From a plasmid, in NCBI RefSeq assembly GCF_057098645.1, contig NZ_JBXSPU010000007.1: a stretch of 3,133 nt of DNA; one strand, given 5' to 3'. The notes under the pieces were generated by a model. That model made no database searches. It saw nothing but the letters and a program-made list of their open reading frames with translations, and was not told where the DNA came from. Of this stretch, positions 1 to 3,133 are shown piece after piece. Position numbers and translations under genes: made by a program. Numbering within the stretch: position 1 is the stretch's first letter; the number at the start of each line of letters is the position of its first letter.

Positions 1-189
1 GATTGTATTGTTTATCGCATTACGCAGAGCAACCTCAATCATCTGGACAAGACAAAAAAAATCGCCAGACAGATCTTGGTAGGCAACGTATGCCCCAACC
101 TTTTCTTGATCAGTAGCGCACCCAAGAAATGTTTCATAGAAAGATAATCTTGGTACAGAAATTGAGCTAATTAAACTTGTTGTATCCAT
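1..189 (-). CDS. 5' portion (N-terminal 63 aa) of an Abi_2-family (AbiD/AbiF-like) abortive-infection protein; ORF runs off the left edge
   Basis: Hand translation of the minus strand from ATG at 189 gives MDTTSLISSISVPRLSFYETFLGCATDQEKVGAYVAYQDLSGDFFCLVQMIEVALRNAINNTI with no stop before position 1. An in-frame stop lies 3 codons upstream of this ATG. The motif IEVALRN matches the N-terminal 'iEvalR' block of Pfam Abi_2, recalled from memory. Not in the supplied ORF track because the ORF is open-ended. Confidence 0.5.
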   Translation of the reverse strand, partial: MDTTSLISSISVPRLSFYETFLGCATDQEKVGAYVAYQDLSGDFFCLVQMIEVALRNAINNTI

Positions 190-290
190 GAAAACTCACT
201 TATCTCTTTACTATGAATATTTTTCAGACTACCATTACAACATTCGAGGAGCAGGCGAACTACCGTTTTTCTGTGTACCTCTAGAGCGTA

Positions 291-338
291 AAATATAACA
301 AAAAAGCCCACTACAGAGTGGGCTTTTTTGTTATATTT
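291..338. terminator. Bidirectional rho-independent terminator: perfect 22-bp inverted repeat with 4-nt loop
   Basis: aaatataacaaaaaagcccact-acag-agtgggcttttttgttatattt. GC core gcccact/agtgggc flanked by an A-run on one side and a T-run on the other, so either strand yields stem plus U-tract. Confidence 0.75.
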
Positions 339-430
339 ATCTATATGAAACAACCAGTTATAGTTATTGTTTCATAATAAGAATTGAATACTCTTCACAA
401 TCCACAACATCAGAAAATACTTTGCTGCCA

Positions 431-458
431 ATTTACCATAACTCCCCTTACGCGCACC
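431..458 (-). other. cer-like Xer (XerC/XerD) multimer-resolution core site; accessory region probably extends to about 640
   Basis: The minus strand reads GGTGCGCGTAA-GGGGAG-TTATGGTAAAT. Compare the ColE1 cer arms GGTGCGTACAA / TTATGGTAAAT and the psi XerC arm GGTGCGCGCAA. A 14-bp palindrome tgcatagctatgca at 559-572, about 100 bp to the XerC side, could be an ArgR-box-like accessory element. Confidence 0.5.
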
Positions 459-647
459 GCTAAAACGCGCTGAACGCGATTCTGCCGCAAACACCGCAAA
501 AAGAGATGTTTTACCCAGTGAAAACCGGAAAAATGCGTCAGGACCGTTTTCAGCTCACTGCATAGCTATGCATGAAAGTGAATGGCGATCGGTTTGGGGC
601 CTTACGGCGTTCATACCGTCTGTTTTCGACAGTTTCTCTCCGGGAAG

Positions 648-971
648 CTAATCTGCCATAAGCCTGGATAACAGGGCCCGGTGATACTCCGTAATAGCGA
701 TCAGCACCTCCGCATACTCTCTGTCCCCGACACGCTTGCCGTCGATAAAGAGTTTTTTCTGTAACGCCCCCAGTCTCATAACTTCTTTCAGTACCCGATC
801 ATCAGTCAGTGAGTTAACTTTCTTACCGAGAGCTGCCGCCCGTAAAAAACCGGAAACGGTCTTGCCGCATTCAGCAGCCCTTTTTCTGATTTCCTGGTCT
901 TCTTCTGCCGTCAGACGAACAGGGCGACTGATAGCCCGCCTGCGCGTATTACTTCCACTTCGTTTTGTCAT
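648..971 (-). CDS. mbeC: MobC/MbeC-family ribbon-helix-helix mobilisation accessory protein (107 aa)
   Basis: The track ORF at 648..1061 contains RPVRLTAEEDQEIRKRAAECGKTVSGFLRAAAL, which fits the MobC-family signature RLT.eE..I..A..G.S.S..lR.AL. The likely start is ATG at 971 (MTKRSGSNTRRR...), with GGAG 9 nt upstream. The longer track ORF would run through the oriT inverted repeats. Stop is TAG at 648-650. Confidence 0.75.
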   Translation of the reverse strand: MTKRSGSNTRRRAISRPVRLTAEEDQEIRKRAAECGKTVSGFLRAAALGKKVNSLTDDRVLKEVMRLGALQKKLFIDGKRVGDREYAEVLIAITEYHRALLSRLMAD

Positions 972-994
972 AAAACATGGCTCCGTATCTGACA

Positions 995-1075
995 TGGGGT
1001 GTCGGGGCGAAGCCCTGACCAGGGTAATTGTAATAGCGCGCATGTATGCGCGGTATAACAATTACACATCCTGTC
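995..1075. other. ColE1-family oriT / bom (nic region) with inverted repeats
   Basis: ggggtgtcggggcgaagccctgaccagg closely matches the pBR322/ColE1 bom sequence gggtgtcggggcgcagccatgacccag. Imperfect inverted repeat gtcggggc-gaa-gccctgac. Hairpin cgcgca-tgta-tgcgcg at 1036-1051. Outer inverted repeat gtaattgt...acaattac. Lies immediately upstream of mbeC, the typical oriT-mobC arrangement. Confidence 0.6.
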
Positions 1076-1185
1076 CTGTCAGCAAGTTCGAATTACCGAC
1101 AAAGGCACGGCAGTTTTTTGGCAGTGACAGTATTGTCAGGCAGAAATGCCCGTCAAAGAGTCAGACGACAGAATACCGGCGGCAA

Positions 1186-1214
1186 AACTGTCGAAAAGTG
1201 GTACGCGATATAAT
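1186..1214 (+). promoter_or_regulatory. Candidate rop promoter: consensus -10 TATAAT at 1209-1214, weak -35
   Basis: gcgatataat with TATAAT at 1209-1214. Upstream hexamer is only a poor match (aactgt/ctgtcg). Position is appropriate for rop. Confidence 0.3.
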
Positions 1215-1255
1215 CACACGACGCAGATGACAGACAGAACGGAGAAAACAGAAAG

Positions 1256-1450
1256 ATGAACAAGCAGCAGCAAACCGCACTTAACATGGCAAAATTCATA
1301 AAAAGCCAGAGCCTGACGCTGCTCGAAAAACTGGACTCACTCGATGCTGATGCACAGGCCGCCATGTGTGAGAAACTGCACGAACTCGCAGAAGAACTCC
1401 AGAACAGCATACAGACACGCTTTGAATCGGAAAGTGGCACCGGGGAATAA
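1256..1450 (+). CDS. rop: Rop/Rom (repressor of primer; RNA I-RNA II pairing modulator), 64 aa
   Basis: MNKQQQTALNMAKFIKSQSLTLLEKLDSLDADAQAAMCEKLHELAEELQNSIQTRFESESGTGE aligns along its length with ColE1 Rop MTKQEKTALNMARFIRSQTLTLLEKLNELDADEQADICESLHDHADELYRSCLARF... Confidence 0.9.
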   Translation: MNKQQQTALNMAKFIKSQSLTLLEKLDSLDADAQAAMCEKLHELAEELQNSIQTRFESESGTGE

Positions 1451-2056
1451 CAGTGTTCCTACACCAGACAGGATGCAGAACGATATACCGGTGCGTAAGG
1501 AGAAAATACCACATAAGGCGCTCTTCCGCTTCCTCGCTCACTAACTCGCTACGCTCGGTCGTTCGGCTGCGGCGAGCGGTATCAGCTCACTCAAAGACGG
1601 TAATGAGGTTATCCACAGAATCAGGGGATAACGCCAAAAGAAACATGTGAGCAAAAAACAAGAACCCGAAAAAGGCCGCGCCGGTGGCGTTTTTCCATAG
1701 GCTCCGCCCCCCTGACGAGCATCACAAAAATCGACGCTCAAGTCAGAGGTGGCGAAACCCGACAGGACTATAAAGATACCAGGCGTTTCCCCCTGATGGC
1801 TCCCTCGTGCGCTCTCCTGTTCCTGCCTTTCGGTTTACCGGTGTCATTCCGCTGTTATGGCCGCGTTATCTCATTCCACGCCTGACACTCAGTTCCGGGT
1901 AGGCAGTTCGCTCCAAGCTGGACTGTATGCACGAACCCCCCGTTCAGTCCGACTACTGCGCCTTATCCGGTAACTATCGTCTTGAGTCCAACCCGGAAAG
2001 GCACGACTTATCGCCATTGGCAGCAGCCACTGGTAACTGATTTAGAGGAGTTAGTC

Positions 2057-2086
2057 TTGAAGTTACGTGCCAGTTAAGGCTAAACT
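2057..2086 (+). promoter_or_regulatory. RNA I promoter (-35 TTGAAG 2057-2062, -10 TAAACT 2081-2086)
   Basis: Corresponds position-for-position to the pBR322 ttgaag...ctacact and p15A ttgaag...ctaaact RNA I promoter. Confidence 0.55.
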
Positions 2087-2092
2087 GGAAGA

Positions 2093-2193
2093 ACAAGTTT
2101 TGGTGACTGCGCTCCTCTTAAGCCAGTTACCGAGGTTCAGAAACTTGCCGGTTGCTGAACCTTCGAAAAACCACCTTGCCGGGTGGTTTTTTC
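2093..2193 (+). ncRNA. RNA I (antisense copy-number control RNA)
   Basis: acaagttttggtgactgcgctcctcttaagccagttacc...aaccttcgaaaaaccaccttgccgggtggttttttcg parallels ColE1 RNA I ACAGUAUUUGGUAUCUGCGCUCUGCUGAAGCCAGUUACC...GGUGGUUUUUUUGUUU. Terminal hairpin ccacc-ttgccg-ggtgg followed by a U-tract. Confidence 0.75.
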
Positions 2194-2200
2194 GTTTTTA

Positions 2201-2229
2201 AGATTACGATGGGCGCGATATGAACTCAA
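2201..2229 (-). promoter_or_regulatory. RNA II promoter (-35 TTGAGT at 2229..2224, 17-bp spacer, -10 TAATCT at 2206..2201, minus strand)
   Basis: Matches pBR322 RNA II promoter ttgaga...gcgtaatct. Confidence 0.6.
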
Positions 2230-2299
2230 GGAAATCCGCAATTAAATTATAAAAGTTTGTGGATTAATGGAAAAACTGATGTGAATCAGCTATTTATCC

Positions 2300-2328
2300 T
2301 TAAGATTTGATGTCAGATATGGTATAAT
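2300..2328 (+). promoter_or_regulatory. Strong sigma70-type promoter with extended -10 (-35 TTAAGA 2300-2305, 17-bp spacer, TGgTATAAT 2320-2328), directed toward the Abi gene 3' end
   Basis: Consensus TATAAT preceded by TGn, with a 4/6 -35 at optimal spacing. Sits in an AT-rich tract divergent from the RNA II promoter. Predicted start about 2334-2336. Confidence 0.55.
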
Positions 2329-2401
2329 TAACCATTCAAATAGATGGAATAAAAAGTCAACGCTGCCATTAGAACGGCATAAGAAATAGAGGATTATGAA
2401 A

Positions 2402-2545
2402 ATGAATACTAAAGTTCTTTTTGTGAAAAAAGCCTTGAAATCAATTACTTGCGCAATTCTTTCGCTCTTACCGGCTTTAAGTCGCGCAGTAACAGAGTTA
2501 CGTAGCCTTTCGGCTGCGCGACTTAAAGCCGGTAAGAGCTTTTGA
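2402..2545 (+). CDS. Hypothetical small ORF (47 aa from ATG 2402; 49 aa from ATG 2396) running through the hairpin
   Basis: MNTKVLFVKKALKSITCAILSLLPALSRAVTELRSLSAARLKAGKSF. AGAGGA lies 8 nt upstream of ATG 2402. Against coding: the ORF contains both arms of a perfect 26-bp inverted repeat and its stop sits in the post-stem U-run. Confidence 0.2.
   Translation: MNTKVLFVKKALKSITCAILSLLPALSRAVTELRSLSAARLKAGKSF
2464..2539. repeat. Perfect 26-bp inverted repeat with 24-nt spacer (large hairpin/cruciform). Intrinsic terminator for the plus strand, and possible 3' stabiliser for Abi mRNA on the minus strand
   Basis: gctcttaccggctttaagtcgcgcag (2464-2489) is the exact reverse complement of ctgcgcgacttaaagccggtaagagc (2514-2539). 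The spacer taacagagttacgtagcctttcgg holds the mini-hairpin taac-aga-gtta and the palindrome tacgta. A U-run cttttgattg follows on the plus strand only. Confidence 0.9.
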
Positions 2546-2569
2546 TTGTATCACATTTTTCCTTAAAAG

Positions 2570-3133
2570 TCAACCGGCTACCTTAAGCTCCCTGCACTTA
2601 ATCCTCCCTATAATCCCCATAACATACTCTATCGTGCAGCGTTCATAAAAGCGCCTATCGTGCCCAATAAACTCAATAAGTTCCTTTTTCTCGTTAGAGA
2701 CGATACTCAAGGCATTCATTAAAAAATTGAACTCTTTCAACATATTATTTATGGCTTGACTATGCGACTTGCAGTGGTGTTTTTTCCAAATAGGCTCATG
2801 GTGAAAAAGTCGATTCCTAAACAAAAGAACTTTATGAAACTCGTCAAACAACGCTTTAACCTTCATATCCCCCCCACCCAAAGGATTCTTCGCATGAGGA
2901 AATGTTTTTGCCTTGTTCTCTGGAGTCCAGATGTAGCACGGCCTTTGCGTATCCCTATATGGGGCATCTAACATATAAACCCAAAAGCCAAAGGTTAGAC
3001 GGCAAATAACATCATCATCCGTATACCTTACGCCACACTCATCTAGCGCTTTTTGTTTCGCATTTAAAACAAGATCCTGAGATTTCTTTGTTTGAGGTAT
3101 AGAGTCGTACCAAGCAGGCCCATGATTAGCTTT
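2570..3133 (-). CDS. 3' portion (C-terminal 187 aa) of an Abi_2-family (AbiD/AbiF-like) abortive-infection protein; ORF open at the right edge
   Basis: The track ORF 2570..2974 extends in frame, with no stop found by hand translation, to 3133: ...KANHGPAWYDSIPQTKKSQDLVLNAKQKALDECGVRYTDDDVICRLTFGFWVYMLDAPY... It contains LTFGFW (Abi_2 middle motif 'lsFG') and LFRNRLFHHEPIW (Abi_2 C-terminal motif 'RN..AHH..lW'). Stop is TGA at 2570-2572. Confidence 0.7.
   Translation of the reverse strand, partial: KANHGPAWYDSIPQTKKSQDLVLNAKQKALDECGVRYTDDDVICRLTFGFWVYMLDAPYRDTQRPCYIWTPENKAKTFPHAKNPLGGGDMKVKALFDEFHKVLLFRNRLFHHEPIWKKHHCKSHSQAINNMLKEFNFLMNALSIVSNEKKELIEFIGHDRRFYERCTIEYVMGIIGRIKCRELKVAG

Follow-up and report, generated by a model that had tools for sequence, protein, structure and literature searches.

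AbiF proteins are the toxins of type III toxin-antitoxins, in which an adjacent non-coding RNA (ncRNA) of about 100 nt, ended by a terminator, binds the HEPN dimer and blocks its RNase site (PMC12373285, PMC12737573, PMC13064643). The comparators used here for this type are PbAbiF-AbiFr (PDB 8VZ6) and AbiF-RCd22 of C. difficile. Among lactococcal AbiD/F systems, conservation is higher in the upstream non-coding region than in the gene itself (PMC13064643). Meanwhile, PD-T4-5 of E. coli ECOR34 (Vassallo et al. 2022, Nat Microbiol; PADLOC model PDLC04038) is a plasmid-borne, Abi-like system, 'a distant relative of AbiF/D', which acts by abortive infection, and protection against T4-like phages has been demonstrated solely for this ECOR34 gene (PMC9519451). 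Here we describe a gene of the same superfamily, abi, and the small-RNA gene beside it on a stretch of plasmid DNA from contig NZ_JBXSPU010000007.1 (the whole stretch of 3133 nt is called the window). We favour, with a probability of roughly 55%, the reading that the two form a HEPN toxin and RNA module related to the AbiF type III toxin-antitoxins, with the RNA encoded divergently.

The 3133 bp of the window make up an entire circular plasmid, cut inside the abi gene. The two Abi fragments recognised in a preliminary description of this DNA join into one open reading frame (ORF) of 250 aa on the minus strand (189 to 1, then 3133 to 2570), which is unbroken and 100% identical in NZ_CP019897.1. 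That description had placed the protein in the Pfam family Abi_2 (PF07751). With the joined protein this placement fell short, as the match reached 19.9 bits (E = 9.8e-4, residues 33-102) against a cut-off of 25.6 bits, whereas membership in the wider AbiD/F superfamily stood on homologues, motif and fold. A database search returned 63 relatives, several with precomputed PF07751 matches, Abi_2 was matched independently by 31 of the 42 aligned homologues (best 1.4e-11), and tblastn to plasmid genes annotated as 'Abi family proteins' reached E = 2e-24. The PADLOC PD-T4-5 model matched residues 4-229 at 6.6e-30 (102 bits), and the PADLOC AbiD model gave E = 0.003. NCBIfam yielded no match for the protein, which NCBI annotates as hypothetical. 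The immediate subfamily is rare, with 55 clusters at E <= 1e-30 and 3883 at E <= 1e-3 among 1.84 billion representatives.

Across the 42 aligned sequences, E52, R56, N57 and the HEPN Rx4H motif R169-N-R-L-F-H174 are invariant. This motif aligns with the RNxxxHH motif of 8vz6, in which R210 and H215 are the catalytic residues (PMC12373285). An AlphaFold model based on the homologue alignment reached a predicted local distance difference test (pLDDT) score of 95.8, and fold comparison revealed that the modelled protein has the three-dimensional fold of AbiF. A PDB sequence search with the family profile gave a marginal match to 8vz6 (E = 0.067), so that the relationship was established via fold comparison. 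The protein has the AbiF fold and motif, and we are highly confident that it is an AbiF-superfamily HEPN protein. We also followed a conserved 14-mer, TCTAGAGGTACACA, into viral contigs, where all 60 matches lacked both the second conserved block and a HEPN motif downstream and were thus chance matches.

The region upstream of abi provided insights into how this gene may be controlled. A terminator hairpin and a stretch of about 50 nt are conserved there better than the proteins, which are 44-67% identical to that of the window. This element was found upstream of abi in 11 of 11 distinct loci of that identity range, with promoter, hairpin and terminator kept in the same order and spacing. Of the 11 loci in which the RNA gene is complete, 10 have a promoter-like pair (usually TTTACN, 16-19 nt, TAnnnT) at a constant spacing from the hairpin, and in several relatives its -10 is TATAAT or TATGAT. 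We are confident that this is a real, unannotated small-RNA gene of about 95 nt on the plus strand, opposite abi, with a predicted start near 242; the NCBI annotation holds nothing in this stretch. Its linker between 5' hairpin and terminator reads AGAGCGUAAAAU in the window, and the conserved linker is AGAGCGUAAA. The palindrome noted in the preliminary description is indeed perfect, with 22-nt arms and a 4-nt loop, although it is not the edge of the module, as had been proposed, and instead forms the terminator of this RNA gene within it. In some otherwise identical copies, the terminator loop (313-316) is inverted from ACAG to CTGT (L088 and L089 versus L090).

The structure of the small RNA is supported by covariation. 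RNAalifold, run on the 11 distinct sequences, predicted 13 + 6 pairs, and standard pairs occupied 99.5% of the 209 pair cells, compared with 89.7% in shuffles and 41-61% when the 3' partners were slid. Compensatory changes occurred at 8 pairs, and the covariation score was 0.407 versus 0.196 and was reached in none of 500 shuffles. The window RNA has a minimum free energy of -42.2 kcal/mol (z = -7.7). Moreover, the alignment has 34 invariant columns, among them unpaired bulges and the linker, whereas neither the length nor the sequence of the apical loop is constant. The same data identify the transcribed strand. Hairpin pairing is present in 142 of 143 cells on the plus strand versus 109 of 143 on the abi-sense strand, because of 33 G·U cells, and every aligned sequence folds better on the plus strand. 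On the RNA side, almost every locus has a good U-tract; that of the other side is poorer in L173, L176, L177 and L179.

We built a covariance model, R1, of the element. It scored 74-93 bits in every group-A locus with sufficient upstream DNA, always opposite and just upstream of abi. The comparison establishes the existence of the RNA gene, its strand and its strict co-occurrence with abi. In the chromosome of Lonepinella (L176), the insert between a DjlA-like gene and dus is exactly RNA plus abi. R1 had no match in about 80 loci of less closely related Abi genes, and none in ColE1 plasmids whose cargo is different, the PD-T4-5-family plasmid included. Rfam 15 contained no family for the small RNA. 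Permissive thresholds returned only terminator-driven noise (Thr, Trp and Phe leaders, miRNAs), and the abiF motif RF03085 had no match at E <= 1 in the whole window or at E <= 10 in 195-350. Relatives with 32-43% identity display an analogous opposite-strand promoter, a different RNA and a terminator, as judged by inspection and folding only. By the same means, AGCG(A/U) before the terminator was seen to be common to the small RNA and these distant groups, while in group C the strand preference of the folding energy was inconsistent.

Comparison with AbiF reveals both likeness and difference. The module of the window shares with the AbiF type III systems the fold, the HEPN motif and an adjacent, conserved, structured RNA gene. 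However, the AbiF RNA lies on the same strand as the toxin gene, is co-transcribed and is followed by read-through into abiF, whereas the window RNA lies on the opposite strand and has its own promoter. The G·U pairs, the side of the U-tract and the position of the promoter all place the RNA opposite abi, which speaks against co-transcription with the toxin gene via a leaky terminator. The RNA also differs in lacking RF03085 and in having one 36-nt hairpin, as opposed to one or two abiF motifs of 33-37 nt, and the protein, at 250 aa, is shorter than AbiF (about 300 aa or more). Three fits (fold, motif and obligate RNA neighbour) stand beside two differences, and we therefore regard the locus as an AbiF-like toxin-RNA pair and not as a canonical member. 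Lactococcal AbiD, AbiD1 and AbiF (PF07751) likewise belong to the same superfamily, have the HEPN motif and have a better conserved upstream region. The window protein is set apart from them by its Abi_2 match, limited to the N-terminal part, and its poor AbiD score, and host, replicon and RNA orientation all differ.

Of the tested relatives, PD-T4-5 is the closest. A full-length gene of its family (PADLOC, 444 bits, versus 102 for the window protein) is carried by CP056281.1 (L183), an E. coli Rop/RNAI plasmid of 4074 bp, in the same ColE1 slot and with the same cer edge as abi in the window. The two proteins are only 25% identical and differ in length (304 aa in CP056281.1, with about 314 aa in PD-T4-5 itself). 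The CP056281.1 locus has no R1-type RNA. Its gene lies on the strand of RNAI and begins 72 nt past the RNAI terminator. If ECOR34 is arranged like L183 (2203-2374), the 184 nt that Vassallo et al. cloned together with PD-T4-5 from its upstream side would be mostly RNAI sequence. The preliminary description had considered an Abi gene on an enterobacterial ColE1 replicon notable. PD-T4-5 was already reported as plasmid-borne (PMC9519451), CP056281.1 carries a gene of its family, and homologues of the Abi protein occur on 962 PLSDB plasmids, including 86 of Escherichia and 294 of Klebsiella. Thus, there is precedent for an AbiD/F-type gene on an enterobacterial ColE1 plasmid. The window gene is a distant cousin within this group, and its putative defence phenotype is extrapolated from PD-T4-5.

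Based on these findings, we propose that the Abi protein would dimerise into an Rx4H RNase with toxic activity, and that the small RNA, probably the RNA partner of abi, would hold it in check in uninfected cells. This restraint may act through protein binding, as AbiFr and RCd22 RNAs do for AbiF, and antisense pairing or promoter interference may additionally limit abi expression. On phage infection, this balance would be disturbed, RNA cleavage released and the infection aborted. What we infer from the comparison is that Abi is an RNase and toxic, that the RNA is its antitoxin and that the module defends against phages, and these points do not carry equal weight. It is likely that the small RNA restrains Abi in some way, while restraint by binding to the protein falls a little short of even odds. 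Phage defence as the main role is somewhat favoured. Conserved unpaired positions together with a freely varying apical loop lean towards protein recognition, and both mechanisms may operate. The RNA of about 95 nt could tentatively be taken as an undescribed class of antitoxin for compact, PD-T4-5-like HEPN RNases, divergently encoded and with its own promoter.

Several observations weigh against the toxin-RNA pair. All AbiF ncRNAs characterised so far share the strand of their toxin gene, whereas this RNA lies opposite abi and does not match RF03085; the protein is under the Pfam Abi_2 cut-off; and the small-RNA gene is a prediction from sequence. Its promoter in the window is weak, with 8 of 12 matches and a score under the cut-off of the promoter scan. 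The same scan found no convincing sigma-70 promoter for abi on the minus strand of 190-430, where a candidate, TTGTAA-17-TTCATA, was rejected as poor and not kept in relatives. The covariation rests on 11 mutually related sequences. Finally, the PD-T4-5-family protein of CP056281.1 is distant and has no such RNA, and therefore the defence phenotype is extrapolated far.

The small RNA might alternatively be a cis-antisense regulator, comparable to those of type I toxin-antitoxins or to copy-control RNAs, that represses abi instead of binding its protein. It could do so by pairing with abi read-through transcripts or through occlusion of the abi promoter by its own. The RNA gene occupies the opposite strand, with the abi start on one side and the upstream gene or terminator on the other, which is compatible with this, and its -35 is only 17 nt from the abi start codon, so any abi 5' untranslated region longer than about 20 nt overlaps the RNA promoter. 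Most relatives have a co-directional AlpA-like gene and a terminator that is weak in that direction, and therefore transcripts reading through it would be complementary to the RNA; the promoter scan yielded no strong promoter of abi's own. Yet a purely antisense RNA requires no primary-sequence conservation, because target and regulator change together, and here it is the unpaired bulges and linker that are invariant and the apical loop that varies. The AGCG(A/U) shared with distant groups, the fold of AbiF, an RNA-binding protein, and the fact that the window has no upstream gene but retains the RNA and an intact abi also argue against this route, which is the strongest rival reading and which we consider rather unlikely. 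Alternatively, the pair could serve mainly as a plasmid addiction (post-segregational killing) or competition module, with phage defence secondary or absent. Type III toxin-antitoxins can stabilise plasmids, nearly all close homologues of abi reside on small contigs with an integrase or on very small replicons (ColE1, Rep3, RepL), and recombination of the backbones leaves the cargo about 99% conserved. However, high-copy ColE1 plasmids with cer seldom need killing systems, Lonepinella has a chromosomal copy, and the closest tested relative came from a selection for phage resistance and acts as an abortive-infection system (PMC9519451). Addiction as the main role appears improbable to us.

In the preliminary description, abi was single-gene cargo, for which the palindrome was an insulating bidirectional terminator and the conserved upstream DNA would be a promoter or operator. 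This agrees with the symmetry of the palindrome, which in the window is terminator-like both ways, with the empty NCBI annotation and with the fact that PD-T4-5 was cloned and scored as one gene (PMC9519451). We regard it as very unlikely, since compensatory changes and strand-specific G·U pairs are unexpected for a protein-binding DNA site. It also sits badly with the constant order and spacing of promoter, hairpin and terminator in the 11 loci, with the 92 bp of cargo that follow the palindrome, up to 430, and with the insertion of the element along with abi in the Lonepinella chromosome.

The toxin-RNA pair might have a further component in other genomes. Most close relatives display a conserved gene of 90-96 aa, AlpA/HTH_17-like (…DFPRPFKIGRAYKWKDTEIMDWLETKRV), just upstream of abi on the same strand, and this gene and the small RNA converge on a common terminator. 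It may be a third, dispensable component of the module. A putative AlpA/HTH_17-like remnant in 339-430 of the window was dismissed as noise of a local tblastn search (best E = 0.06, 700-nt database). Relatives with the AlpA-like gene also contain two to five CTATG repeats, 10-11 nt apart, between the RNA promoter and the abi ATG, the last of which gives the abi start codon (L180, about 440-500; L091, about 2440-2500; L173, L177 and L179). These repeats are absent from the window and may be binding sites of a regulator. The coordinates of all features are collected in Table 1.

Table 1 Features of the window and AlpA/HTH_17-like genes of related loci (L numbers designate the loci compared)
Feature	Position	Strand	Basis or remark
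abi, 5' part; start codon is the complement of 187-189	1-189	-	ORF crosses window ends; N-terminus aligns with homologues
Predicted sigma-70 promoter of small RNA: -35 TTTACT 207-212, 17-nt spacer, -10 TACCAT 230-235	207-235	+	
Small-RNA gene, about 95 nt	242-338	+	Covariance model 93.5 bits at 242-331; no annotation
5' hairpin of small RNA, 13 bp with fixed bulges, 36 nt	246-281	+	Conserved
Intrinsic terminator (palindrome); GC core 306-312 / 317-323, U-tract from 324	291-338	+	
Rest of cargo beside cer: AT-rich spacer with 10-bp hairpin 344-353 / 367-376	339-430		Inverted repeat; outside shared backbone
cer-type XerC/XerD core: GGTGCGCGTAA (XerC arm), GGGGAG, TTATGGTAAAT (XerD arm)	431-458	-	Pattern match
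NikA-like ribbon-helix-helix mobilisation accessory protein ('MobA'), 107 aa	648-971	-	Pfam NikA-like 2.8e-18
oriT/bom-like region (oriT, origin of transfer); 20-nt inverted repeat 1024-1043 / 1046-1065	1003-1070		Repeat 90% complementary
rop (Rom)	1256-1450	+	Full-length Pfam match to Rop (3e-33); NZ_CP116992.1 annotates a Rop family protein
RNAII	from about 2197 towards about 1650	-	Opposite RNAI
RNAI, antisense copy-number regulator	2095-2195	+	Rfam RF00106, 95.9 bits versus gathering score 47
RNAII promoter TTGAGT-17 nt-TAATCT	2229-2201	-	Read from sequence; right-hand backbone limit
Cargo sub-module	2300-2573		Promoters, 49-aa ORF, inverted repeat
Promoter TTAAGA-17-TATAAT with TG	2300-2328	+	Promoter scan; Shine-Dalgarno sequence, then ORF, follow
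49-aa ORF with Shine-Dalgarno sequence	2396-2545	+	Ended by inverted repeat
26-bp perfect inverted repeat 2464-2489 / 2514-2539	2464-2539	+	Terminator; fold z-score -6.4
Strong promoter TTGACT-17-TACAAT	2573-2545	-	Promoter scan; faces inverted repeat
abi, 3' part; stop codon 2570-2572; HEPN motif R169-N-R-L-F-H174 (FRNRLFHHEPIW)	2570-3133	-	Joined ORF
AlpA/HTH_17-like gene	L002 1659-1949; L173 1824-2111; L177 1893-2180	same as abi	
AlpA/HTH_17-like gene	L179 859-1137; L180 69-341; L091 about 2150-2290	same as abi	

The compositional mosaic suspected in the preliminary description was borne out. The cargo (2234-3133 plus 1-424) has 37.5% GC and the backbone (425-2233) 50.9% GC (chi-square p = 1e-13), with 34.5% in 2234-2569 and 40.6% at the third codon positions of abi. 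Homologous abi genes have a GC content below that of their surroundings in 10 of 10 other loci examined. The analysis supports a low-GC gene of the AbiD/F superfamily as cargo of a small ColE1-type plasmid, and we consider the anatomy and mosaic composition of the plasmid virtually certain. Among variants of this plasmid, substitutions cluster in the backbone (1100-1900) and the cargo differs by about 1%, and therefore one cargo rides recombining backbones.

The limits of the cargo were revealed by comparison with ColE1-type plasmids that carry other genes. The closest of these have a backbone identity of 90-93% to the window, and homology spans from 424-431 to 2197-2214. To the base, the junction is 430/431, where the XerD arm of the cer-type core has its outer edge, so that the cargo runs past the palindrome that had been taken as its boundary. 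In the seven plasmids compared at this edge (the window, L189, L190, L191, L183, L184 and contig L002), similarity ends at one and the same base of the XerD arm (ATTTACCATAA on the plus strand, window 431), and no two of them have related sequence past it. The second junction is situated just beyond the RNAI terminator and the RNAII promoter. L189, L190, L191, L183 and L184 are ColE1-type plasmids of 3.6-4.1 kb with their cargo in the slot between cer and the RNAII promoter. These cargoes are a NERD-domain protein (L189), NYN plus helix-turn-helix (L190), a hypothetical protein (L191), the PD-T4-5-family gene (L183) and a 220-aa Abi-like protein (L184). The same break in seven plasmids therefore indicates a shared cargo slot, one edge of which is the Xer crossover site. 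Small plasmids of the ColE1 type seem to act as a common vehicle for cargoes of one or two genes, many of them nuclease-like or Abi-like. The small qnrB19 plasmids are an example of ColE1-family plasmids that swap cargo at Xer sites. The window resembles such plasmids in its backbone, with RNAI/RNAII, rop, oriT and cer, and in its junction at the Xer core. It differs from them in that its cargo is a defence or toxin module and not a resistance gene, and in that just one junction is a Xer site, the other being at the RNAII promoter.

The backbone contains the RNAI/RNAII antisense pair and Rop of a ColE1-type replicon. The ColE1 form of the RNAII promoter is TTGAGA-17-TAATCT, and the oriT-like region has a putative resemblance to pBR322 bom. 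The cer-type core was sought with XerC/XerD consensus arms based on published dif, cer and psi sites; the pattern had one match in the window and none in 200 shuffles. The 107-aa mobilisation protein had been labelled mbeC, but it is NikA-like and matches the NCBIfam MobA equivalog with 113 bits (cut-off 80), and Pfam and NCBIfam searches reported no MobC/MbeC family match for it. The plasmid had also been called mobilisable. The list of ORFs in the window includes no relaxase-sized ORF, and none besides abi exceeds 164 aa, so that transfer would require a relaxase in trans; the term applies with that proviso. The MOB-suite typing 'relaxase MOBF' in PLSDB has no corresponding gene in the window. 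RefSeq places a 37-aa 'replication initiation protein' (WP_071790583.1) at 1927-2040 on the plus strand, within the RNAII/ori region, which looks like an annotation artefact because a ColE1 replicon requires no Rep protein.

Between the RNAII promoter and abi, the cargo contains a sub-module with a 49-aa ORF, for which no Pfam or NCBIfam family match was obtained. Homologues of its DNA and of the ORF were found only in the plasmid family of the window. L002, the closest other abi homologue on a ColE1 plasmid, has no such stretch, and its abi ends about 65 nt from RNAI; the sub-module is therefore not obligate for the Abi module. In L188, a metagenomic copy with a 100% identical Abi protein, the 24-nt loop between the 26-bp repeats is exactly reverse-complemented (3069-3144), which alters 9 residues of the small ORF and leaves it open. 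This could be a flip-flop inversion or an assembly ambiguity, and the inverted loop of the small-RNA terminator is a flip of the same type. A second promoter-like site in the cargo, TTTCCA-16-TATAAT (2246-2273, minus strand), precedes the RNAII promoter by about 40 bp in the same orientation, and transcription from it could enter the replication primer.

The plasmid itself is not new, having already been sequenced dozens of times. PLSDB holds 12 records of 3133 bp that are 99.9-100% identical to the window, from E. coli and Salmonella isolates of human, swine, poultry and water origin, and 10 further records of 3125-3131 bp with 94.7-97.3% identity. The abi gene is present in 27 of 5426 complete E. 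coli genomes, almost always on this plasmid. Two of the 31 places matching the 3' part of abi in E. coli genomes are chromosomal, possibly through integration or misassembly. One record of 4750 bp (L187, NZ_CP148481.1) has two copies of the ori/rop segment around one abi, either a partial dimer or an assembly artefact. A variant of the plasmid (L185, CP042624.1) has a 1-bp deletion in abi at window position 2876, beside a C-run, and no annotated Abi coding sequence; its abi is a pseudogene or contains a sequencing error, and its small-RNA gene is intact (R1 93.5 bits).

What is new is that a conserved, structurally supported and unannotated small-RNA gene accompanies this Abi subfamily everywhere it was found. 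Defence catalogues (PADLOC, NCBI) read the locus as a single hypothetical protein, and the ORF cloned or scored alone could show toxicity or no phenotype. The base-exact break at the XerD arm of cer points to Xer-site recombination that shuffles such genes among common plasmids. If the RNA is an antitoxin, partnerships between HEPN proteins and RNA, which are related to the origin of Cas13, would be wider. The principle of AbiF and its ncRNA, a proposed root of Cas13, would then extend to a proteobacterial plasmid lineage with a different RNA architecture, and analogous RNAs beside the relatives of 32-43% identity would make the partnership old. In that case, some 'single-gene' Abi and PD systems would actually be two-component.

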